Assembly (NCBI GenBank): GCA_963845975.1
Contig: CAWJUD010000002.1
Span: forward strand, 781,646-845,645
Length of the DNA stretch: 64,000 bases
Direction of reading: 5' to 3'
Source: Pirellulales bacterium
Lineage (GTDB): Bacteria > Planctomycetota > Planctomycetia > Pirellulales > Thermoguttaceae
Shown: positions 15,345 through 64,000 of the stretch, in pieces
Layout of the letters: each line of letters begins with the position of its first letter
Position numbering within the stretch: position 1 is the stretch's first letter
Position numbers and translations under genes: made by a program
Notes under the pieces: generated by a model
What the model saw: only the letters and a program-made list of their open reading frames with translations
Told to the model about the DNA's origin: nothing
Databases searched by the model: none

Positions 15345-15355
15345 TTAGTCTAAGA

Positions 15356-39997: not shown

Positions 39998-42171
39998 AGC
40001 ACCGACCTCACGAGCGAAACCACCTCGGGCTCCGGGCGGCAGCGGAGGCGATAGACCGGCACACGCGCCAGAATCGCGTCGAGGTTTGCCATTGCACGCT
40101 GCATGAGCGCTCGATCCCAGTAAGGCAGAAACGCACGGGCGAGCAGCAACGGCGCAGAGGCGGAGGGGGAGAGCCGGTGGATTTCATTCTCAGGCGCTTG
40201 TTCCAGCAGGATGAGAGCGAAGAGCGGCGCACGATAATTGAGGGCTATGTTGGCGGTGCCGGCCCAAGGCGTGCCGTAGCACTCCGCACCGCTGGCTTTC
40301 GGTCGTACGGCGATCCGGTCGTCGTTCATCGCAATCACGCCGGCGAACTGACTCCACAAGCTCGCTTGTGTGCTCTTGCCCACACCGGAGTGTCCGACAA
40401 AGACTATGCCGCGCCCGTTGTCGTCAATTCCGGAGGCGTGGAAAAACAGGCCGTCCGTCAAAAGTATCTTGGTGCGCAGAATCAGATCACCTGCCCAGAA
40501 GTTAAGCAGACTCATCCAGGTTGGGCCGTCCCGCTGTTCGGTCAGTGTCAGGTCGTCCCACGCGGCGTTGGCCCGCAGCACTCCTTGCACGTTTTCGCTC
40601 TTATAACTGAATGCGGAGTAGTACGCCTGGGCCTCACGATACATCCGCCAGATGGAGCCCGGACTGTAGATCAATTCACCGTATGGGGATGGCGCTCGAG
40701 TGCTCTCTTCCCAGTCAAGCGACAGTCGCGCAATTGGATCCTCCGGCGCACCAACAAAAGAGCCAAACCACTTTTCGATTCCCATATCAGCGGCCGAAAG
40801 TGGACTATGCACCTCGATCAGAATATCGGCGATAGTAATAGGGATGTTATGCTGGCTGCTCATAATAATTCTTTGCGCCCGAGCTATTTGACACAGATAC
40901 GGTACTGGTTCGGTCAGTGTGTTTGTTTCTGTCAGCGACCATCCCGGGCAGCGCTTGCAGTAGACTCGCGCATCGCAGGAAAGACAAACGGATGCGATGC
41001 GCAACGAATCAACATATTCCTTCACTTGTTCCCATGCCACCGCGAAGCCGACCTCCAAGGGCTTGGCAGCAGGTCGCGGCAGGGATAGACAAGCATTTAT
41101 TTCTCCCGCTGGATTGATGGCAAAGTGCGCTTTACCGCATAGGCAGTGGAAATTGTAGTCACCGGCTGTGGCGTATCCCATGAGTGTGACATCGCTCCAT
41201 TCGTCGGCGGAGATACGATCAGTCGATTCAAGTTTGATACAGTCCTGTACAGACAGGCGGCATTTCTCAACCTCGGAAGGGGTGCCGTCGGGCCGCTTAC
41301 CGAGCAGCCAGTTCCCTGAAAAAGGCACACCCCAGTTGTGCGCCATCTGTCGCATCGCTTCCAGTTCGCCCACATTTTGTCGAGTGATAGTGATCTTCAA
41401 TTCTAGAGGCACGCGGCGCTTGATGAGTGATTCGATCCCGGCGCAACAGTGTGTGTAACTGCCGATCACGCCGGTAACTGCCTCGTAGGTGGCGGCTGTC
41501 GCGCCGTAAAGGGTTATAGTAGTGCAGTTGGGCGGAGCTTGGGCAAGGCGCTCTGCTACTGCCTCACTGATGAGCGTGCCATTGGTGCGGACAGCGATCA
41601 GCAACCCCAAGCGGGTGAGCGGCTCAAAGATTTCAAAAAAGTCGGGCCGCAAAAAGACCTCACCTCCAGTGAGGATCAAGAAGAGCATGCCATGACCCAC
41701 TGCTTGGTTGGCCAGAGACAACCATGCTGCCGCCGGCAGTTCCTTTGCCCGTCGCGCTACGTCATCAGCCGGATGCCGTACGGCGCACATTCGGCAAGCG
41801 AGGTTGCAGCGGGTAGTCAGCTCAAAACTGGCGCTGATAGGCTGACGGCGATCACTGGCGCGCCTGAAAAGTTCATCCGTCAGTGGACCATATTGGGTGG
41901 GAAGCGTGCTCATGCCAAAAGACCCATGCGCAAGTTCGTCCACAAAATTCCGAACATCGACGGCTGCATGTTCTACATCCACATCAAACCGCTCTGCCAT
42001 GCTGTTTGCCAGATAGTCTGCGGAACATTCTTCTGCAAGGAGGGACCAGATAAAGCACCCCGTGTTATTCAGAATCACCATGCCGTTGAGATCCATGACC
42101 CGTGATCCCAGAGGCACCAGCAGATTCTCACCGCTTATATTATGCAGCAGAAGATCATCATTGCGTTTCAT
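39994..42171 (-). CDS. Tri-domain fusion: PqqD-like RRE + radical SAM/SPASM peptide maturase + HprK-related kinase domain
   Basis: N-terminal LLVPLGSRVMDLNGMVILNNTGCFIW (PqqD-like); CNLACRMC radical SAM cluster with SPASM cysteines (CLCGKAHFAINPAGEINAC...CLSCDARVYCKRCPGW); C-terminal GIVFVGHSGVGKSTQASLW P-loop resembling the HPr kinase C-domain. Confidence 0.75.
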   Translation of the reverse strand: MKRNDDLLLHNISGENLLVPLGSRVMDLNGMVILNNTGCFIWSLLAEECSADYLANSMAERFDVDVEHAAVDVRNFVDELAHGSFGMSTLPTQYGPLTDELFRRASDRRQPISASFELTTRCNLACRMCAVRHPADDVARRAKELPAAAWLSLANQAVGHGMLFLILTGGEVFLRPDFFEIFEPLTRLGLLIAVRTNGTLISEAVAERLAQAPPNCTTITLYGATAATYEAVTGVIGSYTHCCAGIESLIKRRVPLELKITITRQNVGELEAMRQMAHNWGVPFSGNWLLGKRPDGTPSEVEKCRLSVQDCIKLESTDRISADEWSDVTLMGYATAGDYNFHCLCGKAHFAINPAGEINACLSLPRPAAKPLEVGFAVAWEQVKEYVDSLRIASVCLSCDARVYCKRCPGWSLTETNTLTEPVPYLCQIARAQRIIMSSQHNIPITIADILIEVHSPLSAADMGIEKWFGSFVGAPEDPIARLSLDWEESTRAPSPYGELIYSPGSIWRMYREAQAYYSAFSYKSENVQGVLRANAAWDDLTLTEQRDGPTWMSLLNFWAGDLILRTKILLTDGLFFHASGIDDNGRGIVFVGHSGVGKSTQASLWSQFAGVIAMNDDRIAVRPKASGAECYGTPWAGTANIALNYRAPLFALILLEQAPENEIHRLSPSASAPLLLARAFLPYWDRALMQRAMANLDAILARVPVYRLRCRPEPEVVSLVRSVL

Positions 42172-42483
42172 GTTATCTCCAAGTTGTTAGTGTTTCTGCA
42201 ATCGTATGGCCACTTCAAACACCGCGACTCCAACGTGGGATTACAATAGTTGTAGATTTGCTCAGCATGGGTTAGTTGCCATGGTAACGAGTTTAGAAGT
42301 CATGTAAACAATTTTATGCAGTCTTTTAATCAATACTTGATTGAAGATACGAACGAACCATATAAAATTAGACCGTTTTCACCGAAAACATCAATAATCT
42401 CATGCCGGTTATCAACCCAAATAAACGCCAGCAAAGAGTTTCTTCTCCATCTTAAGGGAGGTTTCCTATATCTCGATATCACG

Positions 42484-42627
42484 GTGGATGGGGTCAATCA
42501 GGTTGATAACTAGCAAAAAGTCTCTCTTCTATCCTGAGAGGAACAAAGGTTGCCTTGGGCGGCTCATAGGGCTGTTTGGGGCTCGGCTGCTCTTCATTTT
42601 GCTGGATGACTTCTTTTGGATCATCCG
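42484..42627 (-). CDS. 47-aa Pro/Glu-rich peptide sharing an ATGA junction with the upstream PqqD-like gene; candidate precursor
   Basis: MKNPDDPKEVIQQNEEQPSPKQPYEPPKATFVPLRIEERLFASYQPD; ATG overlaps the upstream stop (acATGAaaa); SD-like aaggga 10 nt upstream; below the 60-aa ORF-track cutoff. Confidence 0.4.
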
Positions 42628-42920
42628 GGTTTTTCATGTTTGTTTCCCTTTCAGTTGAGTTATGTGTAGACTCAGTTCGCTCGCATTGGCGAGGAGGTTG
42701 GTGAAAGCGCGGTCGACTTCCGTTACGAAGTCATCCACAGTGTGCTCCCGTACATCCTCTTCCACACGGCTATGCCCATAGGGTTGATTCCTACTACGGA
42801 GTCGCACCTGTAAGGATTAAACAAGACAGCACAATCGTCGAACTCTTCCCTCAGCACCACCAACGGATTAGCCAACGGTTTTTCAGACTTACTTGTTTGC
42901 ATAACAGAATCCTGATTCAA
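42624..42920 (-). CDS. PqqD-family peptide chaperone (RRE), with a 1-nt deletion frameshift relative to its degenerate paralogue at about 52.5 kb
   Basis: NPLVVLREEFDDCAVLFNPYRCDSVVGINPMGIAVW PqqD pattern; C-terminal part continues in the -1 frame (VDDFVTEVDRAFTNLLANASEL) up to the TGA that overlaps the next ATG. Confidence 0.55.
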
Positions 42921-43112: not shown

Positions 43113-43412
43113 TTAGGGGCTGATTATGTGTACCGGAATCTGCAGTTCCCATGTACAGGTACGAGTATGTGTACTTCTATGCCGACAACACTCGCCATGA
43201 CCGGCTCGCTTGTCCACCCACTCTGGGCTCCTCTTGTAATGTTTTGCCTTGGTCAATTCGTCTGCCTTGGCCTCCAACAACGTATTGAGCATCTCTTCCA
43301 CCGAGTCCCACACCAAATTGCCCAGGTAGTTCGTTACCTCCTCTTCTTCCTCATTTACCTTATACAATCCCGAAAACTTCTTACATCTGGCATTTTCTGT
43401 CACACTGCTCAT
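43113..43412 (-). CDS. Hypothetical acidic protein with Cys/His/Thr-rich C-terminus (GHGECCRHRSTHTRTCTW)
   Basis: ORF only; possible second precursor type. Confidence 0.3.
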   Translation of the reverse strand: MSSVTENARCKKFSGLYKVNEEEEEVTNYLGNLVWDSVEEMLNTLLEAKADELTKAKHYKRSPEWVDKRAGHGECCRHRSTHTRTCTWELQIPVHIISP

Positions 43413-43774: not shown

Positions 43775-45589
43775 ATGTCCATCAAAGAAGGTTATCGCAC
43801 AGTTCTGGGCGCATTGCACATTGGTCCCGCCCTCCGTTTAGTCTGGCAGGGATGTCCCGGTTGGACCGTGGCAAGCGTCCTGCTCCTGATCGTACAAGGG
43901 ACGCTGCCGCTTGTGGCGCTTTACGTTCTCAAATTGATCGTTGATGCGGTGGCGGGCGGCCTCCAAGGGGGTGCAGGCGAACACGGATTCGGGCAAGCAG
44001 CCTTCTTGATCGGCATCGCGGGCTTTGTCGCTATTGTCGCGGCTGCCTGCCAGTCTCTGGCGATGCTAGTAGACGAAGCCCAGACGCAAGCCGTTTCCGA
44101 CCACCTGCATCACATTCTCCACGCCAAGTCCGTGGAAATCGATCTCGAGTACTACGAGGATCCGCAGTTTCACGACACATTGCATCGAACCCAGTTCGAG
44201 GCATTTTTCCGGGCCTCGCACATCTTCAGAACGCTATTGCAGTTGGGACAAAACGGGATTTCGCTGGTGGCGATGGTCGTTCTAATCATTTTGTGTCACT
44301 GGCTGGTTGCCGCACTTTTGTTCTTGGCAGCCCTCCCCCTTGCCTTCGTTTATCTGCGGTATGCCAACAAGCTCTATCAATGGCGCCGTGATCGCACTTC
44401 CACCGAACGCCAGGCGACCTACCTACACTGGCTGCTAACCAGGAGCGAACCCGCTAAAGAACTTCGACTTTTTTCCCTGGGTAATCTGTTCATGGAACGG
44501 TTCCGGGAGCTGCGCAAACAGCTCCGCGAAGAAAAAATCCATATTGTTATGGCACGTTCGGTGACGGAGTTGGTCACCCAAATCGGCGCTGCCCTGGGTA
44601 TTATCGGGGCCTATGCGTTTGTGACGTATCGTGCCTTTCAAGGTTTTATGACACTTGGCGATCTGGTGATGTATTTTCAGGCATGCCAGCGGGCACAAGG
44701 TTTTTTCCAACAGTTGCTGAGCGGTTTCAGCAGTCTCTACGAGGACAATCTGTTTCTCGCGGACTTATGCGACTTCTTTGCCCTGAAGCGCAAGGTTCTT
44801 GAGCCTGGTCACCCGAAACCCATGCCCAAGCAAATGGAGACTGGGATCGTATTTGAGGGGGTCGGCTTCCGCTATCCAAACAGCACGAAAGTGGTGCTCA
44901 ACGACATCAATCTGACAATCCGTCCTGGAGAAATTGTGGCGCTGGTCGGCGAGAACGGGGCGGGTAAAACAACGTTGATCAAGCTTCTCTGCCGATTGTA
45001 TGATCCGACTAGCGGCAGTATTCGGCTCGATGGAATCGATCTGCGCCAGTTCCGGACTATTGATCTACGGCGCGACATCAGCGTCGTATTTCAGGACTAC
45101 ATGCAGTACTACACCACCGCGCGGGAAAACATCTGGTTTGGCAATACCGATTTGCCATGCGATCAGGAACGAATTGCAGTTGCGGCGCGGCAGGCCGGCG
45201 CCGACCGCGTGATCGCCAAGTTGCCTCGCGGCTATGACACGATCCTGGGAAAATTGTTCGACACAGGAGAAGAATTAAGCACCGGCGAATGGCAGAAGCT
45301 CGCCCTTGCGAGGGCGTTTCTCCGCGACGCCCAGATCGTCGTGCTGGATGAGCCGACAAGTGCCATGGGAGCCAGGGCCGAATTGCAGGTCTTCAATAAG
45401 TTCCGCCGGCTGATCGAAGGCCGCACGGCAATCCTGATCAGTCATCGGTTTTCGACCGTCCGGATTGCAGACCGGATCTTTGTGCTCGACGAGGGGAGAA
45501 TCATCGAATCTGGCAACCATGAAGAATTAATAGCCCGGGGGGGAACCTATGCTCGACTCTTTGAAATCCAAGCACAATCTTACAGATGA
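43775..45589 (+). CDS. ABC transporter, fused permease/ATP-binding exporter
   Basis: Six N-terminal TM helices; Walker A GENGAGKTTL, signature LSTGEWQKLALARAF, Walker B IVVLDEPTSAMG. Confidence 0.85.
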   Translation: MSIKEGYRTVLGALHIGPALRLVWQGCPGWTVASVLLLIVQGTLPLVALYVLKLIVDAVAGGLQGGAGEHGFGQAAFLIGIAGFVAIVAAACQSLAMLVDEAQTQAVSDHLHHILHAKSVEIDLEYYEDPQFHDTLHRTQFEAFFRASHIFRTLLQLGQNGISLVAMVVLIILCHWLVAALLFLAALPLAFVYLRYANKLYQWRRDRTSTERQATYLHWLLTRSEPAKELRLFSLGNLFMERFRELRKQLREEKIHIVMARSVTELVTQIGAALGIIGAYAFVTYRAFQGFMTLGDLVMYFQACQRAQGFFQQLLSGFSSLYEDNLFLADLCDFFALKRKVLEPGHPKPMPKQMETGIVFEGVGFRYPNSTKVVLNDINLTIRPGEIVALVGENGAGKTTLIKLLCRLYDPTSGSIRLDGIDLRQFRTIDLRRDISVVFQDYMQYYTTARENIWFGNTDLPCDQERIAVAARQAGADRVIAKLPRGYDTILGKLFDTGEELSTGEWQKLALARAFLRDAQIVVLDEPTSAMGARAELQVFNKFRRLIEGRTAILISHRFSTVRIADRIFVLDEGRIIESGNHEELIARGGTYARLFEIQAQSYR

Positions 45590-46219: not shown

Positions 46220-47198
46220 TCAAGCATTAATTATGGTCTTCATGAGAACATCGACGGTCTGGTCCAAAGGGCCGGGATGTAATTCGTAGCACTCGGCCTT
46301 GCGCAGGGCCGCCCCTAAGGTCGACATGGATCGATAGGCTCGGGCTGGATCGGCGATCATGTTATTGAGCGAGAGCAGCATTGCGGCGGTGATGGCCCGG
46401 GCGCGAGGCATCGGTTCTAATCTGGGCGCGTCTTCGAATCCGCCGAGGAAAAAAAAGTACCGCAGATTACATGGCGAGCCTATTTCGACATCATCAGCAT
46501 GGAGAATGTGAACTCCCAATGAATCATCATAGGCGTTTCGGATTTTGTGTAGCATCTTGTCGTCTATGCAGCCCTCGATCAACGGCAAACTTTCCGGACG
46601 AACCGAGATCGACTTGGGCAAAGGGACCATCCGGTACAACTCCTTGTGGAACACAGTGACATCGTCGGAGAAATATCGAAAGCCCTGGCCCAGTAGTCCC
46701 AGCGTCAGCGTTGTTTTGCCCCGCATTGTTGGCCCCGCCAGCGCCACGCCCTGCCCATTCCATGATAGTCCGGCAGCGTGCAGTAGTTCGTGAGACTGCA
46801 CTTTTGAGAAGCAGAATGGCGAATACTTGCGTTCGGCATAGATTGTAGAGCGATTCGATGGCAAGGATATAGATATTTGCGAGGCCTTCGGAAAAGATGG
46901 CAAGATACGGTTCGCCATCACCGCTGATAAGCATGAAGATGGGAACACTGTTGGCTCGGTTCTCCGTCTTCAGACTTCCGTAAATGGCATCGAGACATCG
47001 GATGACAACACGGTCGTTGGTCTTGACACGGACGAACACGTCCAACAACCGATAGGTTCGTTCCAACTCCTCCTGCCACTTCATGTTCTGGAGTTCCTGC
47101 ACCACCCCAGATACTATCTCCCTATCCGATAGCCTTTTGCATAGCGACATGCCGTCTAGACGCAGCATCTCAGAGACCAACTGTGGTGATTGCATCAT
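46220..47198 (-). CDS. HprK-related serine kinase (stand-alone); one frameshift near 46920
   Basis: GVALAGPTMRGKTTLTLGLLGQGFRYFSDD matches the HPr kinase C-domain P-loop (GxxGxGKS/T...ADD); ATGATG start at 47198 overlaps the last 30 nt of the B12-rSAM gene. Confidence 0.65.
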
Positions 47199-48552
47199 TG
47201 TTCTCCAACAGAAGATTCCACTTCGCCAAGAAATTCGAGTCTTCGAAACGCCAGTAGGGGGCAAAAACCTTGGGATGATCTTTGATCAATTGCAGCATCT
47301 CCGCGCTTCCATTGTTCAGGGCCATCATCGATCCGTCGCCGCGGCATACGAAGCGGACCTTTGCCGCCGCCTCGTCGAAGAGAATGCTGTCTTTGTACTC
47401 CGCGTACAGCGGCGAATTCGGCATCGGCATCAGGTGGTTGAACGCGAGTATCATCGAGCACTTGCCCTCCGCCGCCTGGGAAATGTAAAAGACAAGGAAC
47501 ATGGTCTCCTTGAATTCGATTAACGTTTCGAAGGGAAATCCCCACATCAGGAAAAGTTTGATGGTTTTGAAATGCGACATCGATTGAACGATGGTGTGGG
47601 TGGCCTCCTTGATGCTGAATCCCTTGTGAAGTATCTTCAGGACCGAATCAGACCCGGACTCCAGCCCGTAGCCGATTGCAGTGCAACCCGTTGCAGTCAT
47701 GCACCTTAGCAGCTCCTCGTCCATTAGATCCACGCGTCCCAAGCAGCTCCACTCGCTGCCGGGGGCCGCCCGTTGCAGTCCTTCGCAGAATTGTTGCACT
47801 CGCTGTTTTGATAGCACGAATGTATCGTCATGGATACTGAACTCTTTCTTCCCAAACTCGTGGTACAACAAATGAACTTCCCGGAGGACGTTATCCATGT
47901 CTCGATAACGAGCCCGGCGCCCCCAGTATGTGGATATATCGCAGAACGTACAATTGTGCGGGCAACCCCGGGTTGTTAGAATGCTCGCCCTTTCATATTT
48001 TTCGAGATCCAGAAGTTGATAGGCGGGAAAGGGCCGATGGTCGAGGTCGGAGATCAATTCCCGCGCCGGCGCGGTCCACGCGGAACCATCTTCCTTTCGC
48101 ACTATCACCCCCTTGACGCGACCGCATTCTCCCGGCGCGGACTCCAGGTAATGCATCAGTTCAACAATCGTGTCGTCAGCCTCTCCGCGAACAACCACGT
48201 CGATCCAGGGAAAAGATTCGATGATCGCCTCCGCGACGCCGGACGGTCCCGCCCCGCCGAGCACGAAAACCTTGTGCGGATCGAGCTGCTTCACCTTTTT
48301 CGTAGCGAGGATGACCACCGGCAGCATGTCGTACATGCACCCGATCCCGACTACGTCCGCACAACCGGAGAGAAACGAGACAAACGTATCGACGTCAAAG
48401 GGATTCTCGTATGGGTAGGTCTGGTAGTCCTTGAAGTCCACCTTATAACCGCTTTGTACAAGCGAGGTCGCTATGTGCAAGGGCCCCAAAGGAATGAAGT
48501 GTTTTTTCGGATCAATACGGTCATACGCGGCAACGATTGATATATCGCTCAT
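47170..48552 (-). CDS. B12-binding-domain radical SAM enzyme
   Basis: N-terminal cobalamin-binding Rossmann region followed by TTRGCPHNCTFCD CxxxCxxC. Confidence 0.8.
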   Translation of the reverse strand: MSDISIVAAYDRIDPKKHFIPLGPLHIATSLVQSGYKVDFKDYQTYPYENPFDVDTFVSFLSGCADVVGIGCMYDMLPVVILATKKVKQLDPHKVFVLGGAGPSGVAEAIIESFPWIDVVVRGEADDTIVELMHYLESAPGECGRVKGVIVRKEDGSAWTAPARELISDLDHRPFPAYQLLDLEKYERASILTTRGCPHNCTFCDISTYWGRRARYRDMDNVLREVHLLYHEFGKKEFSIHDDTFVLSKQRVQQFCEGLQRAAPGSEWSCLGRVDLMDEELLRCMTATGCTAIGYGLESGSDSVLKILHKGFSIKEATHTIVQSMSHFKTIKLFLMWGFPFETLIEFKETMFLVFYISQAAEGKCSMILAFNHLMPMPNSPLYAEYKDSILFDEAAAKVRFVCRGDGSMMALNNGSAEMLQLIKDHPKVFAPYWRFEDSNFLAKWNLLLENNDAITTVGL

Positions 48553-48572: not shown

Positions 48573-48857
48573 CTAGGAATCGCCTGCGCTGCAACGCCCG
48601 ATCAGTTGCTTGGCCTCTAGCTGCCGGATCAGATCTTCAACGTCCGTTGAAATCGCAACCGCGTCCCCCTGATAGGACGAACAGAGCCCGTTCACGATTT
48701 CGGCGACTGTCCTTTTCCCGTCCAGAAGTCTCCATATACTTGCCGCGATTCGATTAAGCACGGATACTTTGCGGCCCTGGGAATCATACAAAATGACCTC
48801 GTCCTCAAGGTCCTGGCAAGCCACATTAGCATTGTGTTGGTAAATGCCATCGAGCAT
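48573..48857 (-). CDS. PqqD-family peptide chaperone (RRE)
   Basis: VILYDSQGRKVSVLNRIAASIWRLLDGKRTVAEIV...DVEDLIRQLEAKQLI. Confidence 0.7.
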   Translation of the reverse strand: MLDGIYQHNANVACQDLEDEVILYDSQGRKVSVLNRIAASIWRLLDGKRTVAEIVNGLCSSYQGDAVAISTDVEDLIRQLEAKQLIGRCSAGDS

Positions 48858-48921: not shown

Positions 48922-49980
48922 TCAGTATAAAAAAGGTACGGCATGTTCCCGAAATCCCCGGGATTTCCGCGAACGCGCAACGATCTCTTCCCGAAGGTGA
49001 TTGATCATCACCGTGGCCGCACATGCAAGCTCTCGACGCCTGGTTTCCGATCCAAGGCGATCGCACAGAGATTGCAAAACCTCCGGGCGAGAGAGCATGG
49101 CCATGCACAGTTCGCATTTAGTGACGCAATTGGTCGGTTTCTCCAGGATCACGCCGCTTCCCTCGAGTTCTTGTAACAAGCCGGCAGGGCCGCCGAGTCG
49201 AAGAATGTTCAGCAGAGGCGACCTGTCTGCCTTGTGCAATATCTCCACTAAGGAAGAACGCTTGGCGTTTCCCAGGATCAAAGGGCTGTCCGGGGTAAAA
49301 GCCAGATAAGGCCCGCAACAAGCGACCACCGTGCCGTCGGGGAGCACGTTTGGCACGAAGGAAACGAAGCAGCCGGAATTCGGGGCATGTGTAGACGTTA
49401 TCATCTCGGATCGCGGAATGGACTTGGCGCGGCCGAATGGAACCACCGGCTGATCGCCGAGGGGAACGCGCTCCTCGGATAAGACGCTGTGGATCTGTTC
49501 CGCCACCGGATCGTCGCGAAGCACCGAAAGATTGACTATAACGTGAATGTCGTTCTTCTTGCAGGCCCTCACGGCGTTCAGAACATTTTCCATCGGCACA
49601 AACTGCACATGAAATTGATCGGTGCTGATGGCAATCATTTTGACGCCACGTTGCTTCAGCATGGCCGTGGTATCTATAGCTTCGCCGAGAGTCCGCGCCC
49701 AATAGGTGTCGGTCTGAACGACCGGTCGCAGGCCGCAATCTCGCGACATTTCCACCAGGTGCAGTACGTCGTCGGGAAACAGCATGGGTTCGCCGCCGGT
49801 GATCCATAACACGCGAAACCCTGCCTTTGCAGCCTCCTCCACGGTCTTTTCTGCCAGAGGCATTGGCATGACTTCAGAACGTTCCGGACCACATTCGAAG
49901 ACGCAATGTCCACATCGAGCATTGCACTTAGACGTATATACCAAACAAAGAATCGCAGGTAATCTTTCTGCAGTCTTCAC
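48922..49980 (-). CDS. Radical SAM/SPASM-domain peptide maturase
   Basis: YTSKCNARCGHC CxxxCxxC; C-terminal SPASM cysteines (CCGPY...CVTKCELCMAM); GTG start. Confidence 0.8.
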   Translation of the reverse strand: MKTAERLPAILCLVYTSKCNARCGHCVFECGPERSEVMPMPLAEKTVEEAAKAGFRVLWITGGEPMLFPDDVLHLVEMSRDCGLRPVVQTDTYWARTLGEAIDTTAMLKQRGVKMIAISTDQFHVQFVPMENVLNAVRACKKNDIHVIVNLSVLRDDPVAEQIHSVLSEERVPLGDQPVVPFGRAKSIPRSEMITSTHAPNSGCFVSFVPNVLPDGTVVACCGPYLAFTPDSPLILGNAKRSSLVEILHKADRSPLLNILRLGGPAGLLQELEGSGVILEKPTNCVTKCELCMAMLSRPEVLQSLCDRLGSETRRRELACAATVMINHLREEIVARSRKSRGFREHAVPFLY

Positions 49981-50218
49981 AAGTACTTTACTTTCCCGGC
50001 GATGCCTTAGTCATAAACCAAGAGTCGTCTAATACATAGTAACATTCATTCCGTCTCTTCACCAAGCAGAGACGATAAAATGTATATATCCACCGCCAAA
50101 CGTATACTTTGCAGCGTTTGATTGTATGCATCCACGTCTTAAAACACGTTCACATGCTGCTTTGACTATGCAACCCACTTATTGGCGCCGCATCGACAAT
50201 ACTTTATCGGCCTGTGCA

Positions 50219-50374
50219 CTAGCTGGTGTAAGTAATTGGTCCAGGGAGGGTGAATATTTGATTTTCAGGGTCAAATTTCGCCGCCACCTTTACCTTCCCC
50301 AGGACTTCATTCTCATCGTACTCCGTGATTTGAGGCTTTTCCCATATCTGCATGTCTATCTTTTCCATATTCAT
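50219..50374 (-). CDS. Precursor peptide A (51 aa)
   Basis: MNMEKIDMQIWEKPQITEYDENEVLGKVKVAAKFDPENQIFTLPGPITYTS; leader shared with copies B and C, divergent core, ITYTS tail; the 87-aa track ORF is an over-extension. Confidence 0.6.
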   Translation of the reverse strand: MNMEKIDMQIWEKPQITEYDENEVLGKVKVAAKFDPENQIFTLPGPITYTS

Positions 50375-50388
50375 AAACCCATACCTTT

Positions 50389-50535
50389 CTACTTCACAAT
50401 CTGTGCCGTCATAAGCACTGGCATGACCTCCGAACGCTCCGGAACACATTCCCAAATGCAATGTCCACATCGAGCATTGCACTTAGACGTGTATACCAAA
50501 CAAAGAAGCGCTGGTAATCTTTCTACAGTCCTCAC
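50389..50535 (-). pseudogene. Duplicated 5' fragment (48 codons then stop) of the radical SAM/SPASM gene
   Basis: VRTVERLPALLCLVYTSKCNARCGHCIWEC... is about 85% nt-identical to 49840-49980, including the upstream region. Confidence 0.6.
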
Positions 50536-50827
50536 AAGTAATTTACTTTCCCGGCGATGTCTTAGTCATAAACCAAAAATCGCCGAATATATAGTAATGC
50601 TCAATCCACCTCTTCACCAAGTACCAACAACATAGTGCATACAAACCCACCACTAAGTGGAGGCTTCATATGCACCATTGGATTGCATGCATCCACCGCA
50701 CAAGGCAGGCTCAATTGTATCTTTCACTACATACTACCCACTTATTGGCAGCGCATTGACATAACTTTATCGATCTGTCGTAAAGCGGCTACTTTTTCCG
50801 GGCGAAGTTTGGGATAAAGCGTAGGCA

Positions 50828-50974
50828 CTAGCTAGTATAATTAATTGCAAAGGAAAGTGTGTATAAATTTTCAGCATCAAATTTCGCCGCCACCCTTACC
50901 TTCCCCAGGACTTCATTCTCATCGTATTCCGTGATCTGTGGCTTTTCCCAAATCTACATGTCGGTCATGTTCAT
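50828..50974 (-). pseudogene. Precursor peptide B, interrupted by in-frame amber (TAG) at codon 7
   Basis: MNMTDM*IWEKPQITEYDENEVLGKVRVAAKFDAENLYTLSFAINYTS; CAG to TAG relative to A and C. Confidence 0.5.
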
Positions 50975-51087
50975 AAATCATCTAAACCTTTCTTAAAGCG
51001 GCTATTGACAGCATATCGACTAAACTTTATCGATCTGTCGTAAAGCGGCTACTTTTTCCGGGCGCAGTTTCGGATAAAGCGTAGGCA

Positions 51088-51237
51088 CTAGCTAGTATAA
51101 GTAATTGAGCCGGCAACTGTCCAAGTTTGACCTTCAGGGTCAAATTGCGCCGCCACCTTTACCTTCCCCAGGACTTCATTCTCATCGTACTCCGTGATCT
51201 GGGGCTTTTCCCAAATCTGCATGTCGGTCGTGTTCAT
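51088..51237 (-). CDS. Precursor peptide C (49 aa)
   Basis: MNTTDMQIWEKPQITEYDENEVLGKVKVAAQFDPEGQTWTVAGSITYTS; ATG overlaps the TGA of the upstream peptidase gene (ATGA). Confidence 0.6.
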   Translation of the reverse strand: MNTTDMQIWEKPQITEYDENEVLGKVKVAAQFDPEGQTWTVAGSITYTS

Positions 51238-51821
51238 AAATCACCTAAACCTTTCTTAAAGTGCCGGAAGGCAGAAACGAAAGTCAGAACCTTTAAACAA
51301 AATTGAAGCACGCCAATGGATACCACACGTAAGCATCGAAATATCGTTCTCGTGATGAGGTTGTGATTGTTAGGCCAGATCCATTCCTTGACGCTCCTTG
51401 CCAGCCGGTAAAAATACCACATTACATATCCATATAGTCCTAAAAACCGATTCACTATTGTCCAGTGCAAGGTCTCGTAATGATGCCGCGATGCGGTATT
51501 CTGCACAACGATCACTTTTCCTAGCACTGCCCCTATATCGAGTTTTCTATACACAAAGGAATTGTCGCCCTTCTCCAGAAGACGATCTCCTTGCCGCCCG
51601 ACAAATCGATGGACGACCAGATGTCCATGTTCCTCGAATACAAGTATGTCTCCGATCGTCAACTTATCGGCTTGTAACGATCTTACGATCAGATTGTCGC
51701 CGGGACGAATAATAGGCGACATGCTTGTACCCATCGATTCGAATGTTGCCTCACCATGGTGGCGAAGGCGCATCTGCGCCACAAGTACTGCCAAGTCTTG
51801 TTCCTTACGATCTCCCGCCAT
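51234..51821 (-). CDS. S24/S26-like serine peptidase, paralogue of 39506-39997; candidate leader peptidase
   Basis: ESMGTSMSPIIRPGDNLIV...GDILVF...HLVVHRFV...VLGKVIVV; stop overlaps precursor C start. Confidence 0.6.
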   Translation of the reverse strand: MAGDRKEQDLAVLVAQMRLRHHGEATFESMGTSMSPIIRPGDNLIVRSLQADKLTIGDILVFEEHGHLVVHRFVGRQGDRLLEKGDNSFVYRKLDIGAVLGKVIVVQNTASRHHYETLHWTIVNRFLGLYGYVMWYFYRLARSVKEWIWPNNHNLITRTIFRCLRVVSIGVLQFCLKVLTFVSAFRHFKKGLGDL

Positions 51822-52335: not shown

Positions 52336-52363
52336 ATTATACTATGCTAGCAAGTCTTGTCAA
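52336..52363 (-). promoter_or_regulatory. Near-consensus sigma70-type promoter (TTGACA-16 nt-TATAAT) reading toward the peptidase/precursor operon
   Basis: On the - strand: TTGACAagacttgctagcatagTATAAT in an AT-rich region about 500 nt upstream of 51821. Confidence 0.4.
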
Positions 52364-52419: not shown

Positions 52420-52692
52420 CCGACAGCCGCGTTTGGCGGAGATATCGGCGGAGGCGCGCTCGGCTACCGTTACGAAGTCATCCATGCTGTACTTACCGTA
52501 CACAAGCTACCACACTGCTATTCCAATAGGGTTGATCCCCACTGCGTCGCTCGAGTCGGGATTGAACAAAGGCTCCTCCCTCAGTACCACCAAGGGATTA
52601 GCCGCTGGTTTTTCGGATTTCCTCGTTTTCATAGAAATGCAGACTATATTTTCCATTAATCCCCCGACGCCGCCAATTGACCGCCTCCACAT
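52420..52692 (-). pseudogene. Degenerate second copy of the PqqD-like gene (premature TAG and internal deletion)
   Basis: MKTRKSEKPAANPLVVLREEPLFNPDSSDAVGINPIGIAVW* aligns with 42624-42920 at nt level, including flanks. Confidence 0.5.
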
Positions 52693-53661: not shown

Positions 53662-53748
53662 GGATGGGTGGCCGAGTGGTCTAAGGCGGCAGTCTTGAAA
53701 ACTGCTGTGGGCGTGAGTCCACCGGGGGTTCGAATCCCTCCCCATCCG
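53662..53748 (+). tRNA. tRNA-Ser (anticodon UGA)
   Basis: Acceptor GGATGGG/CCCATCC, anticodon stem GCAGT/ACTGC with loop CTTGAAA (U33-UGA-A37), long variable arm, T arm GGGGG-TTCGAAT-CCCTC, discriminator G. Confidence 0.85.
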
Positions 53749-55051
53749 TTTTTGAGAAACATGAAGCAAGATTGTATTCTTTCGTATCTTTTCGTAAGTC
53801 TTTATTAGGGTTCGTTTTTGCCGCGTTTTTCTCGACCTGATAAGAATCACCCTTAACCGCCTCTAACGATCTATTACTGTGGATTACGTGCGCCGCGCTC
53901 GTAGGATTTTGCGTTACTTGCTGTGGCGTAACTGCCGCCCGAAAATGATCGTCTACAGTACGCGCATAGTGAGCTAAGGCAATTTTTGGTGAGTGTCCAA
54001 GCCACTTAGCAACAGTCTGAATAGGAAAGCGTTCAAGCAAATCTGTTTCACTACTGGCCCTCAACCCGTGGAAAGGTTTTGGCCACGGTCGCAAACCCGC
54101 ACGTCGAATGATCTTTTCAAAGCTTGTTCGCAAGTTACTATTTCGCCACCCGGCTTTAGAATCCGCTTGGGAACGGTGCTTACTAATAACGTATATCGCG
54201 CCGTCTTTCGCCATATCGAAAGCCTCTTGCAGCGGTCCAACTAATTCTGGAAACAGCGGAATAACGCGCTGGCCACCATTGGGATAGTGCTCTGTCTTAG
54301 GGCTGATAACAGTAATCCGTTGCCTGTTCCAGTCAATATGTTCCCACTTAAGCGATAACACTTCACTCGGGCAACGTAGCCCACCAAAACGAGACAAGGT
54401 CACGATCACCCGCCATTCGGTATCAGGGCAGGCGTCTAACACACTCTCTATATCCGCCTTTGAAACGTAGACGTTCCGGCTTTCATCTACAACGGCGGCT
54501 ACTTGTACATCATTAAATGGATTCTCTTGAATTACCCCGCGCCGAACCATTGCATTGAAAAACATTTTAGCCGCCTGTAGACGCTTGCGGACAGTGTAAA
54601 GGGCTAACCCTTGACCGATCAATGCCTGTTTATAATCTTCGGTCTGAGTACGGGTAATTTGTTGGACAAGTCGATCCGCTCCAAAATACTCAATTAGGCT
54701 GCGTTCACCTTGTTTCCACACAGTCTTACTGGCAGGCTTTACATCTTGCCGCTTGTCGATGTAGTCGGCAATGAAGGCCCCTAGTGTCACTAGTTCCCGT
54801 TTAGGCACTAAACCAACGGCCGCAAGTTTAGTGTGTAATGCATCTGTGATTTTACGCAACCAAGCAGCGGTATCACTGTCGATGTTATCGCCCGACTCGG
54901 CCGCGATTAAAAGACGTTCGATATATCCCTTAACTGTTTGGGCTTGTCTGAGGGGCAACCGTTTCCCTAGATAAATCGTCACTCGTTTCCCGTTTGGGGC
55001 TGTAAATTGGATTCGCTTACCGCCACTTTTGTCTAGGTTTAATGAAGACAT
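53681..55051 (-). CDS. Tyrosine-type site-specific integrase; 3' end of ORF runs into tRNA-Ser antisense
   Basis: C-terminal catalytic region FHGLRASSET...LGHSPKIALAHYAR (R, H..R, H, Y); last about 25 codons (KTDGEGFEPP...) translate the tRNA T-arm antisense. Confidence 0.85.
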   Translation of the reverse strand: MSSLNLDKSGGKRIQFTAPNGKRVTIYLGKRLPLRQAQTVKGYIERLLIAAESGDNIDSDTAAWLRKITDALHTKLAAVGLVPKRELVTLGAFIADYIDKRQDVKPASKTVWKQGERSLIEYFGADRLVQQITRTQTEDYKQALIGQGLALYTVRKRLQAAKMFFNAMVRRGVIQENPFNDVQVAAVVDESRNVYVSKADIESVLDACPDTEWRVIVTLSRFGGLRCPSEVLSLKWEHIDWNRQRITVISPKTEHYPNGGQRVIPLFPELVGPLQEAFDMAKDGAIYVISKHRSQADSKAGWRNSNLRTSFEKIIRRAGLRPWPKPFHGLRASSETDLLERFPIQTVAKWLGHSPKIALAHYARTVDDHFRAAVTPQQVTQNPTSAAHVIHSNRSLEAVKGDSYQVEKNAAKTNPNKDLRKDTKEYNLASCFSKTDGEGFEPPVDSRPQQFSRLPP

Positions 55052-55536
55052 TTATAGTGTTCCTATACACGTGAATCATTGTTCCAACACCTTAGCCATT
55101 ACACACAATTGGGTGGTATGCATCAAAACCAGTAAATATGCCGGAAACATATACTATAAAATCAGTTAAGTGTAATGAAGCTATATTAAGGGTGGTATCA
55201 TTTAAATTCATGGTTACTACATTGCTATGAACCCTTACATACCACCTAAGAGCTTATATATTATAGATTTAGTAATTATAAACACCATTTAGGGGTGTAA
55301 TAGTATGCACACGTGGAAAACCACGGGCTAGGCGTGATAAGTACGGGGCCTTCCGGCCGCTTCCCGCCTTACTTTCAAGCATATTCGTTTAAAGCCACTT
55401 ATTCAAACCATTACCCCTAAAGCCTCCAGCTTACCCAGGGATCACAACAAGACTGTTAGGGTCAATTATATCATCCCAACCAGCCGAGCGCCATCAGGGC
55501 GCTATACGCGCTGTCATGCCTTGTAATTCATAAGGA

Positions 55537-55926
55537 TTATGGATTAAACTTCGGGCCTACACCTACTTCGCTGTATGTTTGACCTTCTTTATTCCGCCAT
55601 ACTCGCCCGGCCGGCGGAGGCGGAGCCAAACGATCTTCATCGTAATTGAATGGCAGCGGGGCATGAAACGTTACAATATCGCCTAATCTATCCAAAATAA
55701 CCACAACATTTTTATTCACGATTTCTGATGGGTCCTCAAATTCACCTACGGCACGCTCTAAATGTCTTATCGCCGCATCTTCATCTAGTAAGACAGTAAC
55801 AACCCTTCCATGATTACCTACTAAAACTAAGCGTAGTAAACTAGTGCCCTCTCCCTGATATTCTGCCTTATCAATCTTAGCCAACCATTCAGTAGAATAC
55901 ATAGCCCGCTCAATTGTGAAGATCAT
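55537..55926 (-). CDS. Hypothetical protein (island cargo)
   Basis: ORF only. Confidence 0.4.
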   Translation of the reverse strand: MIFTIERAMYSTEWLAKIDKAEYQGEGTSLLRLVLVGNHGRVVTVLLDEDAAIRHLERAVGEFEDPSEIVNKNVVVILDRLGDIVTFHAPLPFNYDEDRLAPPPPAGRVWRNKEGQTYSEVGVGPKFNP

Positions 55927-56210
55927 ATTAGGTTCCCTCTTGATTGAAATGCTATAGTCATTGCCTTACTGATTATCATTTGAGTAATGAGGTTGTTTTT
56001 TCTCAGGTGTTACCTGTTTCCGGCCATACCCGCGCATACAGGTAAAACAAGGCTCCCAAGGCCGTATAACCGGACTTGCATACACCAATAGTAGTAAAAA
56101 AGTAAATCCGAGGGGCACTATGGGAAACATGGTAACAACGAACCTATTTCTTATCTTCTTCTTCTTCTTAATATATTATAAATAAAGCACTTATGAAAAA
56201 TATAAAAAAC

Positions 56211-56310
56211 CGAATCGTTGTTACTTTTTTCCAGTAACAACAAGGTAACACCTGGAACACCTGGGGTTTCGTTGTCACTTCGTTGTTACCCCCTTTTTGT
56301 AACAACGAAA
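56211..56310. repeat. Iteron-like cluster of TCGTTGT[TC]AC / GTAACAAC repeats next to the primase gene (candidate origin or operator)
   Basis: tcgttgttac (x2), tcgttgtcac, gtaacaacaa, gtaacaacga plus acacctgg x2 within 100 bp. Confidence 0.4.
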
Positions 56311-58634
56311 TCATGCCTGTATCGCTTCATAAATAACTTGTATTTTCCCTGAAATTGGAATAGAGCTAATCTTTATTCTCCCTTGATCCTCAAGTGCCCT
56401 AGCAAATTCATCTAAGGTTTTTACAGGAGCTTTCATCTTCAGGGAAACTTGCCGTCTAGTTGCCTTACCGCCAAGAGCTACAATAATACGATAGAATTTC
56501 TTGCAACCTTCTTGAAAGGCATTATCGGCCCCATATTCCGCCGTAAGAACCAGGGATCGCTTTGCCTGCCACACAGCTACACCTTGACCCCACTCCACGG
56601 CCGACCGGTCGATTCTTGGGTTCAGGTGGTTCTCAGACACCGCGTACAGCGTCGCTAGCTTTAACATCTGCTCATTTACCCTAGACCAGATCGCCGCTGC
56701 CCCGGCGTCGCTAGCCTGCTCTGCCAGCACATATTCCCGATCCGCTGCCTCTTGACAGGCTTCTATCATTTTCCATGCGGCCGGCGTTGCGGGAACCGTA
56801 AACTGAGTTGAACAATTTGCTATCCACAAGTCTCCGGCATCAGGCGGGCGATATTTGATCCAATACCTAACTTCCTCAATTAACCGTGTCGGCAATTCCT
56901 TAGCCCCTAAAGTTCGCCCTTTACCACGCGAATCGGCTTCGATAGCCAATGTACGGGCACAGAATCCGTTTTGCAGTAGCCGATTACCTACGGCCTTATA
57001 GTAATGTTGTGGAATCGCTGATCCGTGCAACACAACATGCGGTTTATGAATGAGCATTGGCTGAGAGCTATCATAGTTATTCTGTTCGGCCTTTACTCTG
57101 CGTGAAAAAGTTATGCCCGATGCAGTATATAATTCGTTTAACAAGGCGGCGATTGCCTGATAACGGGCATCCTTCCCTTTTTCCATAGCCTCAATCATTG
57201 CGTCAAATTCATCCGTTTGAAAAAGCACTACAGGATTAAGCGGGCTACGGAAAAGTCTATCCTCTATGCCTTCCGATGATGCCATTCGCTCTGACAATAA
57301 ATCCCCAGCATCGGCCGCTATTAGTAATTGACTATTAAGGTTTCTTGTAAAGTTCTTGCCGGTTCCAGAGAACGCCAAAGAAACTATATATAAATTAGTC
57401 CCAAGCCCCGTCGGTCCTTGAATCTTTCTTCCCGTGATTGTGGAAAGTAAGGCTAATGCTCCAGCAAGTGCAAGAGGTTTATTTGGATATGGTGCCGCCT
57501 CCATGCAATGTGAAACATACTCGTTAATAAAACCCGGCACGCTTCGTAGATTAGATGGTAGATAAAGGGATTTTGCCGGTCGCATAATTTCCGAGTCTGC
57601 CGTGTCGCTTGTGGTTATCTCTTGCGGTTTAGAAAGTGCCTTTTCGATCAATCCTTTTACGTCGATGCCACTGGTATCTATAGGTGCATAACTGTTATCT
57701 AATAATAACCAGCCGGCCGGCTTCTGTGGACTAAGTTTGCGTGCTTCACTAATTTTTCGTCTAAAATCCTTTTCATCCTTTGAATTGCTCAAGTCCCACG
57801 GCGGAACACAGCGGGAATTGTATTCACGTACCAGCAAGTCATAAGTTTGACTATCGGAGAGTTGAAACCCATGTACAAGGGCCACAGCAGCCCAAAGCAG
57901 TTTGTCATGCCCGCCCTGCCCCTGGATTGCAGGATCGCATTGAGCAAGGTAAAGATTGGCGCGTTGTAAAATATCATTGCCCGCAGGCGAAGACATATTG
58001 ATTGGCGCTTGGGTGGGGTTAGTTTCCCACGGCACACGTCTATTAGATTGAGGTTGCGATATTGGTAAAGAGATCGGGGATGTAGATTGCTTTATGGTTT
58101 CTGAAAAGTATATAGGCTGCAACCATCCAAGGTTGCAAGATTTTATGATGCCTAATCCAGGTAGGGCTTGTCCAGTGATGCAAAAGAATCGGCCATGATC
58201 GTAGATTTCAATACCGGCCTCTTTCTTGCCTTCACCACCGTATTGCGGAAACTTTTTGTTTTTCCCGGTATCAAAAGGTGACTTACCGCGAACGAAAATT
58301 TTAACGCCAGTCCCGCTGGGTGATATTTCAGAGTAGGAATCGAGTTTGTTAATTATCTCTTGCGCCAATCGGAAACCCCATCTCTTGCATGACGGCAACC
58401 ATCCAAATCAATACCGCAAAAAGGATCGTCTTTAGAGAAGACATAGCCAATACCGTCGAAGCCGCCATGATTGTAGGCTGCTAAAACTTTATCGAAGCTA
58501 GTCCAGGTAGATGGATCATTCGACTTTGCCTCGATGCCGCTGACTTGATAAGGAATTTTACCCGATTTATAAAGTACCCATTGGCTGCGTTCCTTTAATT
58601 CGGCAGGGATATTTTTTATATCAACTTTGCCCAT
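56311..58634 (-). CDS. Bifunctional primase-polymerase (Prim-Pol) fused to D5/P4-type helicase; one frameshift near 58370
   Basis: N-terminal GFDGIGYVF...GIDLDGC and SGTGVKIF Prim-Pol motifs; C-terminal SLAFSGTGKN Walker A; ORFs 58353-58634 and 56311-58398 join. Confidence 0.7.
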
Positions 58635-58901
58635 TTATTACCCCTTCCGTCTGAACGCAGCATATTTCAGAGTATGTTCGAGGAAATTATTCACTTATGC
58701 GGCCTCTAATAAGTTAGCGGATTTTCTTAATAAGTCAGGATATTCGGCTAATTATCTTTTCTAAAGATTGCAGCCAGTGTGCCAGTAATAGTTCCCGCCC
58801 CACGGGTATGAAGTGGTTCCATAAGCTATGTACCCAGTAACCATTTTTATTTCCTTTATTTAAAGTTCTGTAACTGTATGTATATTTGAATTATAAGATA
58901 A

Positions 58902-59129
58902 CTAATCTGCAATCTGGCGTGACAATTCTTTATCAGCCCATGCTTGAATCTGATGAACGAAATAAACTACGCGAGAGCCGACCTTCACAGCAGGAATATC
59001 GCCGCGAGGAAAAGTTCGATCAAATAAAGCCTTCTCTGACATGCCGAGAGAGATCGCACATTCGCGTGGCCTCAACGCTAATCGAGGTATCTCAGGAGCG
59101 GATTCATTGGAACTATAAATAGACTTCAC
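58902..59129 (-). CDS. AlpA/excisionase-family HTH DNA-binding protein
   Basis: LRPRECAISLGMSEKALFDR...IPAVKVGSRVVYFVHQIQAW. Confidence 0.6.
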   Translation of the reverse strand: MKSIYSSNESAPEIPRLALRPRECAISLGMSEKALFDRTFPRGDIPAVKVGSRVVYFVHQIQAWADKELSRQIAD

Positions 59130-59335
59130 TCGGCACCCACTTCCGTCTTTGCTGTTTGAGAAGCCAGAGCCGCCAATACTTTCATAACGGCATTAGGCGA
59201 AAAGAGGTATCGCCGCCCTGTTTTGAGACATGGGATAACGCCCACGTCGGCTTGTTCACGTAACCATTTTTGCGTAACGCCAGCCTGGAGCGACATGCGG
59301 GAAAGAGAAAGCAATTCCGACATACATAACCTCAT
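59126..59335 (-). CDS. Excisionase/MerR-like HTH protein
   Basis: LSRMSLQAGVTQKWLREQADVGVIPCLKTGRRYLFSPNAV; 4-nt overlap with the downstream gene. Confidence 0.5.
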   Translation of the reverse strand: MRLCMSELLSLSRMSLQAGVTQKWLREQADVGVIPCLKTGRRYLFSPNAVMKVLAALASQTAKTEVGAE

Positions 59336-59713
59336 TATACGTTTGAAGTAAATTCAATCCTATAACTCTATTATGACTGTTGGTATAGCTGAAGATGGGA
59401 GGAAATGTAGGGAGAACTCAGGTATTTTGCAGATATTTCACAGAGCGCATTTTTTTAGAGCGCATGTTTTCAAAAGGATATATTCCCCCTTCCTTTTCAC
59501 TTTAAATGGGCGATTATTTTTTTGAAAAAATGAATTGATGGTTTTAAGAGCCGGCCCTACCCGTTCGCCAACAGATAGGTTTCATGGCCCAAAGGAATAG
59601 ATTCACCATTTAAAGAAATAGTATCACCTAAAAAATTAACCTTACGCATTCTGGCTGATTTATAAGGGTATATTTTACCATTCAAAATAAACGCAAGTTT
59701 ACACTCCGCAAGT

Positions 59714-63959: not shown

Positions 63960-64000
63960 AACGCAGGGCAAGCGCTGGGGTGGCAAGACAGGCCGATTCA

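Follow-up and report, generated by a model that had tools for sequence, protein, structure and literature searches.

A putative operon for a peptide made on the ribosome and modified after translation (RiPP), encoded on the minus strand of a 64,000-nucleotide stretch of contig CAWJUD010000002.1 (assembly GCA_963845975.1; this whole stretch is called the window), was compared with the closest described systems, namely the linear polyphosphorylated peptides (LPPs), the epipeptides and the phosphorylated lasso peptides. The core gene set of LPP clusters comprises an endoplasmic reticulum (ER)/archaeal-type signal peptidase, a discrete RiPP recognition element (RRE), an HprK-like kinase, a nucleoside triphosphate (NTP) transferase as well as an exporter resembling MsbA (Popov et al., Nat Commun 2026, PMC13381572). 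LPP clusters encode one to three precursors, which are conserved at the N-terminus and variable at the C-terminus, the leader reading YxxPxVLxHQxIxFETxxS; the motif [Y/W]xxPx[L/V/I/F/A] is the RRE-binding leader motif, LppK polyphosphorylates the precursors, and the phosphorylated serine is core residue 3 (PMC13381572). Tryptophan versus tyrosine in the leader is reported as the rule discriminating LPP from paeninodin, and LPPs are described as Bacillota-restricted (PMC13381572). Epipeptides (EpeX/EpeE = YydF/YydG of Bacillus subtilis) are also described as confined to Bacillota (PMC13012085), and Cys223 of the radical S-adenosylmethionine (rSAM) enzyme EpeE is the hydrogen-atom donor completing epimerisation (PMC5682303, PMC13012085). 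In lasso clusters of the paeninodin type, the conserved serine at the C-terminus is phosphorylated by HprK-like kinases (PMC9266682).

Precursor peptides and maturation enzymes of the operon

Three tandem open reading frames (ORFs) of about 50 codons, designated A, B and C, were found on the maturase strand within 50219..51237, as claimed by the original prediction, a reading of the sequence made without database searches; an independent repeat finder groups them as a three-copy family, D1. They share a near-identical leader, differ in about nine central core residues and end in I[TN]YTS followed by a TAG stop, and the predicted triplets FTL, YTL and WTV and shared YTS end are present in A–C. 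The leader motif W9-x-x-P12-x-I14 (WEKPQI) is of the [W/Y]xxPx[LIV] type, to which lasso-type RREs bind. Each copy is preceded by a Shine–Dalgarno sequence, GGTGAT for C, weakened GATGAT for B and GAAAGG for A; the peptidase gene upstream of C ends in a TGA that shares the sequence ATGA with the start codon of C. The first 23 codons of C are confirmed by an independent contig (L014). The features generic to RiPP precursors are all found here, namely a short ORF beside co-oriented maturase genes and a leader that is conserved while the core varies more; on the sequence evidence, A–C are probably the precursor peptide genes of a RiPP operon, with C and A functional and B an amber-inactivated duplicate.

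The assembly does contain the in-frame amber codon predicted in B (codon 7, TAG at 50956..50954; CAG in A and C). It is read from the window assembly alone, since contigs built from short reads of the same strain break inside the repeats. B is most likely a pseudogene because the amber codon is accompanied by the weaker Shine–Dalgarno sequence, additional leader replacements (K to R, P to A) and the deletion of one core codon. No convincing terminator was found downstream of the peptides, and a sigma-70 consensus match upstream of the peptidase gene (Table 1) is a candidate operon promoter.

On the minus strand the genes follow the order peptidase, C, B, a pseudo-fragment of the rSAM gene, A, rSAM enzyme, RRE, B12-binding rSAM enzyme and kinase, with the genes of the exporter and the NTP_transf_5 protein nearby. 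All five LPP core genes are present in the window and are collinear in a related metagenomic contig, L001; the kinase gene is broken in the window and intact in L012, a contig of an independent Logan assembly that is 99.916% identical to the window over 4.7 kb. The number of precursor ORFs, one to three, their conserved N-terminus and variable C-terminus, the [Y/W]xxPx[L/V/I] motif and the lack of a lasso cyclase are further likenesses to LPP clusters. Unlike the LPP leader, that of the window peptides matches in the WEKPQI part only, with W in place of Y, and its remainder reads TEYDENEVLGKV, without VLxHQxIxFETxxS. In addition, two rSAM genes are embedded in the window operon, whereas none are mentioned in the text or supplements of the LPP paper (PMC13381572).

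The rSAM enzyme encoded next to A matches TIGR04078 (YydG/EpeE) over its full length (1e-31; 110.5 bits against a curated cutoff of 300, and hence below it) and the EpeE structures PDB 8ai1-8ai6 (1.4e-13, phmmer). Its residues 15-298 align with residues 35-323 of the 8ai6 chain, and EpeE is the only full-length match. The segment DGTVVACCGP aligns with DGEIYPCCSP of EpeE, and its Cys-Cys pair corresponds to Cys222/Cys223 of EpeE, in a native numbering that presumes an inferred 25-residue tag. A Foldseek search with an AlphaFold model of the enzyme, taken as corroboration only since the model is of low confidence (pLDDT 63), gave EpeE at 2e-15 against 2e-7 for the next fold. No cyclophane-synthase family occurs among the 25 best NCBIfam matches. 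Because EpeE is the sole full-length match, the donor cysteine pair is kept and cyclophane synthases are missing from these best matches, epimerisation is the best-supported predicted activity of this enzyme. Epipeptide systems also resemble the window in a precursor of about 49 aa, in the auxiliary cluster of the rSAM enzyme and in the similarity of full-length sequence and fold; they differ in that identity to EpeE is only about 21-22% and Asp210 is not kept. To our knowledge, the epe operon contains no RRE, kinase, B12-binding rSAM enzyme or signal-peptidase-like enzyme.

The remaining maturation functions are represented by a peptidase, an RRE, a second rSAM enzyme and a kinase, together with an exporter and a nucleotidyltransferase. 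The ORFs of the peptidase, both rSAM enzymes, RRE, exporter and NTP-transferase are all full-length. The S24/S26 peptidase has TIGR02228 (sigpep_I_arch) as its best family (7e-9, under the curated cutoff) and shows a weak alignment to SEC11A/C that spans the catalytic motifs; it is the candidate leader peptidase. The best PDB match of the PqqD-like RRE is the lasso RRE TbiB1 (5.7e-8), far better than its matches to the PqqD-family chains 9x8z_B and 9x90_B; its matches to the ScmD and lasso PqqD models of NCBIfam lie under the cutoff. As a guess, these two chains stem from the LPP paper of Popov et al. The B12-binding rSAM enzyme, whose PDB matches include CysS and TokK, is presumed to be a C-methyltransferase.

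Phosphorylated lasso peptides (paeninodin, pseudomycoidin) share with the window the discrete RRE, the W/YxxP leader, a homologue of nucleotidyltransferases and an HprK-like kinase in which the His-Lys-Asp-Asp residues occur, and all three window peptides end in serine, the phosphorylation site of these lasso peptides. They differ in that neither a macrolactam synthetase (C) nor a B2 protease was found between 38 and 53.6 kb of the window, where every ORF of at least 120 aa in the gene set of the cluster was assigned; Pfam and NCBIfam scans of the cluster ORFs in this region returned no asparagine-synthase-like or transglutaminase-like match. A linear product is therefore expected. Proteusins of the polytheonamide type likewise combine rSAM epimerisation with B12-rSAM C-methylation of a ribosomal peptide (PMC5682303). 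They possess a PoyD/OspD-type epimerase, as against the EpeE type of the window, and a long nitrile-hydratase-like leader, and are not known to have a set of kinase, RRE and signal peptidase. In the SynChlorMet (SCM) cassette and the HprK-related kinase A systems of NCBIfam, PqqD-like ScmD, the rSAM/SPASM proteins ScmE/F and ScmC/HprK-like proteins also occur together, but the window proteins match those models well under the curated cutoff. We know of these systems only as computational definitions, and of no product; a literature search returned no papers on SynChlorMet or ApyD.

Conserved gene order and origin of the peptide array

Searches for relatives marked the peptides as a very rare family. 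With peptide C as the query, a word-index search of 5.8 billion proteins gave nothing besides A and C of the window itself. A HMMER profile search of 1.84 billion representatives gave the window's own peptide and repetitive large proteins judged spurious, and no relative; pattern scans with the peptide alignment of 185,579 species genomes and of a metagenome collection gave no relative either. The rSAM enzyme has one close homologue among the 5.8 billion proteins (P0004, 56% identical), and pattern scans of genome and metagenome contigs with the rSAM alignment returned homologues of 26-34% identity only.

The contigs bearing P0004, from four metagenome samples of the Joint Genome Institute (JGI), are designated L001-L004. 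Their gene order is S24 peptidase, a 53-aa ORF, rSAM enzyme, PqqD, B12-binding rSAM enzyme, HprK-like protein, ABC transporter and NTP_transf_5 protein. The 53-aa ORF of L001, METTQVDKRPWEQPQIEEYDEDEVLGKVKVAAQFTPEGKTYQASTSTCTYTTN, occupies the same operon position as the window peptides and is 63% identical to C (tblastn). The accompanying proteins are identical to those of the window by 40% (S24 peptidase), 56% (rSAM), 41% (PqqD), 56% (B12-rSAM), 40-52% (kinase), 64% (ABC transporter) and 29% (NTP_transf_5) in the same comparison. The original prediction had suggested a search of metagenomes for the leader next to rSAM genes; its leader/core architecture holds. The exporter gene is inverted in the window relative to L001. 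The peptide of L001 ends in CTYTTN, so that the YTS terminus, predicted to be invariant, is invariant among A-C, and the I[TN]YTS end holds inside the window genome only. Because the peptide is absent from all searched protein and genome collections except this one set of metagenome contigs, the family is a genuinely unexplored precursor class.

In a distant second lineage, represented by contig L005, an EpeE-like rSAM enzyme with a VCC motif is encoded together with an S24 peptidase, PqqD, a ScmC/HprK-like protein and an NTP_transf_5 protein (6220..11436); the kinase-like protein is annotated as PF27840 ScmC. The peptide of this locus, MKVYKKPSIKKLNVKMGLTGGTIGIIWSVSTTST, comprises 34 aa, with a YKKPSI motif and a Ser/Thr-rich end. 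The association of EpeE-like rSAM enzymes with an LPP-like gene set is accordingly recurrent, since this contig joins them again. Genes for a proteasome subunit and for a KH/beta-CASP protein lie on it as well; as a guess, its host is archaeal. The more distant rSAM homologues L006-L008 and the B12-rSAM homologue L013 lie in unrelated contexts, L005 alone sharing the LPP-like set. L013 contains eight rSAM genes of the B12-binding kind, another two rSAM genes and four genes for methyltransferases (4103..18862), and L008 contains four rSAM genes, one of them B12-binding, in a cluster with methyltransferases (3206..8852).

The array arose by two segmental duplications, of [peptide + spacer + first 147 nt of the rSAM gene] and then of [peptide + 113 nt], the latter giving C and B. 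The ancestral unit of peptide, spacer and rSAM start was evidently duplicated, because B and A are separated by a stretch that repeats the 5' end of the rSAM gene, and the spacers after B and after A are homologous. Since L001-L004 each hold one peptide, the three-copy expansion is specific to the lineage of the window. The 238-nt spacer of the window corresponds to just 17 nt in L001, and its RNA fold is not significant (z = -1.35). Two ORFs within the duplicated spacers (50131..49988 and 50653..50543, minus strand), both ending in WFMTK[AT]SPGK and immediately preceding the start of the rSAM gene and its pseudo-copy, were considered as extra genes and rejected, as they evolve neutrally, with a ratio of nonsynonymous to synonymous differences (pN/pS) of 0.8-0.9; they were used as a neutral control.

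Leader and core evolve at different rates. In pairwise nucleotide comparisons of A-C, with the leader taken as DMQIWEK to FDPE (93 nt) and the core as the next 13-14 codons, the leader diverges at 4-8 of 93 nt (4-9%), whereas divergence of the core reaches 27-36%. The duplicated non-coding flank DNA, which served as the neutral yardstick, diverges by 16-25%. Leaders are slower than these flanks (Fisher p = 0.003 and 0.009), and the divergence of the cores does not differ from that of the flanks (Fisher p = 0.32 and 0.49). The core is therefore variable, as predicted, but the term 'hypervariable' was an overstatement, and positive diversifying selection on the core was rejected because its divergence equals that of the flanks. 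Gene conversion is not needed to explain leader identity and was likewise rejected, the synonymous divergence of the leader (0.12-0.25) being comparable to that of the flanks (0.16-0.25).

Comparison of leader and core rates had been suggested by the original prediction. Between the window and L001, 27 leader codons give 1.24 synonymous substitutions per site (dS) against 0.10-0.125 nonsynonymous ones (dN), that is, dN/dS of about 0.09; between the leaders of A and C, dS is 0.14 and dN is 0.016. The excess of dS over dN in the comparison with L001 indicates strong purifying selection on the protein sequence of the leader. The overall pattern is a constrained leader, a middle part of about nine residues that drifts freely and a constrained tail.

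The original prediction did not contain the match to the LPP gene set, the origin of the array by segmental duplication, the 147-nt rSAM fragment or the probable pseudogene status of B.

Table 1. Annotated features of the RiPP locus, in window coordinates
Feature	Position	Strand	Properties
NTP_transf_5 nucleotidyltransferase	38251..39405	(+)	PF14907 2e-62
Second S24/S26 peptidase, module 2	39997..39506	(-)	PF00717 1.2e-6; 30% identical to first peptidase
PqqD + rSAM/SPASM + P-loop kinase-like fusion, module 2	42171..39994	(-)	725 aa; PF05402 + PF04055; ScmE/ScmF ~1e-24, under cutoff
Candidate 47-aa peptide ORF, module 2	42637..42494	(-)	MKNPDDPKEVIQQNEEQPSPKQPYEPPKATFVPLRIEERLFASYQPD; Shine–Dalgarno; YEPP (YxxP) motif
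Degenerate PqqD copy	42920..42634	(-)	module 2
Mutator-family transposase fragment	43412..43113	(-)	PF00872; between exporter gene and module 2
MsbA-like ABC exporter	43775..45589	(+)	PF00005; TIGR02203 2e-89
HprK-like kinase	47195..46220	(-)	TIGR04352 1.5e-18, under cutoff; His/Lys/Asp-Asp residues present
B12-binding rSAM enzyme	48552..47170	(-)	PF02310 + PF04055; ApyD 7e-48, TIGR03975 1.6e-28, both under cutoff
Discrete PqqD-like RRE	48857..48573	(-)	94 aa; PF05402 3e-15
rSAM enzyme, EpeE/YydG-like	49980..48922	(-)	352 aa; C-terminal auxiliary-cluster domain; CxxxCxxC, C19/C23/C26; DGTVVACCGP
Precursor peptide A	50374..50219	(-)	51 aa; intact; MNMEKIDMQIWEKPQITEYDENEVLGKVKVAAKFDPENQIFTLPGPITYTS
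rSAM 5'-end pseudo-fragment	50535..50389	(-)	147 nt; 48 codons then stop; repeat D2; 84% nt identity to 49980..49834
Precursor copy B	50974..50828	(-)	48 codons; MNMTDM*IWEKPQITEYDENEVLGKVRVAAKFDAENLYTLSFAINYTS; probable pseudogene
Precursor peptide C	51237..51088	(-)	49 aa; intact; MNTTDMQIWEKPQITEYDENEVLGKVKVAAQFDPEGQTWTVAGSITYTS
S24/S26 peptidase, ER/archaeal signal-peptidase-I type	51821..51234	(-)	PF00717 1e-5; GTSMSP / VVHRF / KGDN (Ser-His-Asp)
Sigma-70 consensus match	52336..52363	(-)	TTGACA, 16 nt, TATAAT; 12/12; ~515 nt upstream of peptidase gene; consensus match only
Second degenerate PqqD-like copy	about 52650..52433	(-)	homologous to 42686..42798; in-frame stop W*LVYG

Second module, surroundings of the locus and assembly quality

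A second RiPP-like module, with a putative link to A-C, is encoded on the minus strand at 39506..42920. Its 725-aa fusion protein, 8 kb from the peptides, shows faint HprK similarity in the C-terminal domain and weak matches to the crosslinking maturases PqqE, WgkB, AlbA and StsB. The leader motif residue is W in the module 1 peptides and Y in the candidate peptide of module 2. The Mutator-family transposase fragment fits the inversion of the exporter gene and the rearrangement of gene order relative to L001. The PqqD-like copy near 52.5 kb is a genuine pseudogene, because its in-frame stop recurs in L014, an independent contig.

Single-base differences between the assemblies affect two genes of the operon. 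L012 (position 3121) is without the extra T of window position 46810, giving an intact kinase of 324 aa; its own B12-rSAM gene, however, is broken by the loss of one G from the G5 run at window position 47924. Elsewhere in the window, the reading frame of a UvrD/PcrA-type helicase gene changes midway, leaving two ORFs that overlap (6113..7591 and 7551..8216, plus strand), which suggests an indel error of the assembly or a pseudogene. As this housekeeping gene is split too and the kinase is intact in L012, assembly noise is a better explanation of the single-base indels than decay.

On the other side of the locus, a tRNA-Ser(TGA) gene (53662..53748) abuts the gene of a tyrosine integrase (55051..53681), and beyond the integrase, in DNA of lower G+C content (41-46%), lie the genes of a DUF3987 protein (58398..56311) and of a resolvase (63387..63959). 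The region 53662..64000 is probably an integrated mobile element adjoining the RiPP locus. An Rfam scan of the window returned two tRNAs only. An ORF of 920 aa at 11400..14162 (plus strand), located in DNA of high G+C content (about 60%) with a strong AT skew (0.16), has no Pfam match.

In the protein encoded at 29278..30354 (minus strand), 'choice-of-anchor' repeats of the form NxxGxxAF occur, and the C-terminus bears a sorting signal of the PEP-CTERM type, made up of IPEPS, a hydrophobic helix and RKR. Such a sorting signal points to a diderm bacterium, and there are hints here of a diderm host with an exosortase. Because a PEP-CTERM protein is encoded, the host is probably not a member of Bacillota.

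Alternative readings and the proposed pathway

The chemistry predicted originally for the aromatic-Thr-X triplets, cyclophane or crosslink formation, for which the adjacent rSAM enzyme or the 725-aa fusion would be the catalyst, gained no specific support and is distinctly unlikely. The triplets do resemble aromatic-X-X motifs, L001 keeps an aromatic residue (TYQ), and the fusion is a SPASM-type rSAM enzyme with its own PqqD domain and the weak similarity to crosslinking maturases mentioned above. However, the enzyme of the operon matches EpeE/YydG alone over its full length, keeps the hydrogen-donor cysteine and has no cyclophane synthase among its best family matches; the threonine of the triplets is not kept in L001, the 11.5-kb contig of which retains the peptide without a counterpart of module 2, and module 2 in the window has a candidate peptide ORF of its own. 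It is extremely improbable that A-C are mere chance ORFs of a tandem repeat without coding function: the region is repetitive, with many spurious overlapping ORFs on both strands, but a homologous ORF stands at the same operon position in L001 among proteins 40-64% identical, its leader conserved where synonymous sites are saturated. A Shine–Dalgarno sequence before each copy and the ATGA overlap of peptidase stop and C start also argue against chance frames, as do the spacer ORFs of the same repeats, which are without comparable constraint.

A functional LPP-like pathway with EpeE-type chemistry has several observations weighing against it. The family matches of all enzymes lie under the curated NCBIfam cutoffs, and Asp210 of EpeE, the residue mutated in 8ai6, aligns with Val209 of the rSAM enzyme, in a low-confidence part of the alignment. 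The window peptides have no Ser or Thr at the equivalent of core position 3 of LPPs, and phosphorylation of a C-terminal serine is not a family-wide rule because the L001 peptide ends in TTN. As assembled, the window has a kinase gene interrupted by the extra T at 46810, and the locus bears marks of decay and rearrangement, namely the amber codon of B, the truncated rSAM copy, two pseudo-PqqD genes (the stop of one confirmed in L014), the transposase fragment, the inverted exporter gene and the distant NTP-transferase gene. These marks, together with the kinase frameshift, would also suit a decaying relic in which array and operon are nonfunctional and the ORFs are conserved only through recency of decay. 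Such a relic is unlikely, since the leaders of A and C have kept dN/dS of about 0.1 since their duplication while the neighbouring duplicated DNA and spacer ORFs evolve neutrally, the six other enzyme and transport ORFs are full-length, the kinase is intact in L012, and the split UvrD-family gene points to assembly indels rather than targeted decay.

Under the reading of A-C as precursors of an LPP-like operon, the discrete PqqD-like RRE would bind the leader motif W9-x-x-P12-x-I14. The EpeE-like enzyme would then abstract a C-alpha hydrogen and return one from Cys222, producing D-residues, with Ile and Val of the core as the likeliest targets, and the B12-binding rSAM enzyme would C-methylate the core. 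A hydroxyl of the conserved tail might be phosphorylated by the HprK-like kinase, perhaps repeatedly, with the invariant C-terminal serine as the best candidate, and the phosphate might be decorated afterwards by the NTP_transf_5 protein. Phosphorylation of Ser or Thr by this kinase, also part of the original prediction, has direct precedent (PMC9266682, PMC13381572), but the C-terminal serine is absent from the L001 peptide. The leader would be removed by the signal-peptidase-like enzyme according to the (-3,-1) rule, at VLG↓K (with LPP spacing) or at VAA↓[QK]F, and the product would be exported by the ABC transporter. We infer all chemical steps of this pathway from homology and precedent.

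It is plausible that the operon is a rare rSAM-decorated variant of the LPP type. The fullest version of this reading is tentative, possible and short of probable: an undescribed linear RiPP with D-amino acids (EpeE-like rSAM enzyme), C-methylation (B12-rSAM enzyme) and a Ser/Thr tail at the C-terminus that carries polyphosphate or additional decoration (HprK-like kinase, NTP_transf_5), made by an uncultured PEP-CTERM-encoding producer. It would extend LPP beyond Bacillota and join it to epipeptide chemistry, and the substrates of the two RRE-dependent modules may be kept separate by W (WEKP) or Y (YEPP) in the leader.

The value of the locus is practical and lies in natural-product mining; it opens no long-standing question. 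Its two intact cores on one leader represent a natural test set for substrate tolerance. Should the operon be functional, no LPP-type pathway before it would have had rSAM tailoring, and it would contain the first EpeE-like epimerase using a discrete RRE and a signal-peptidase-like leader protease.

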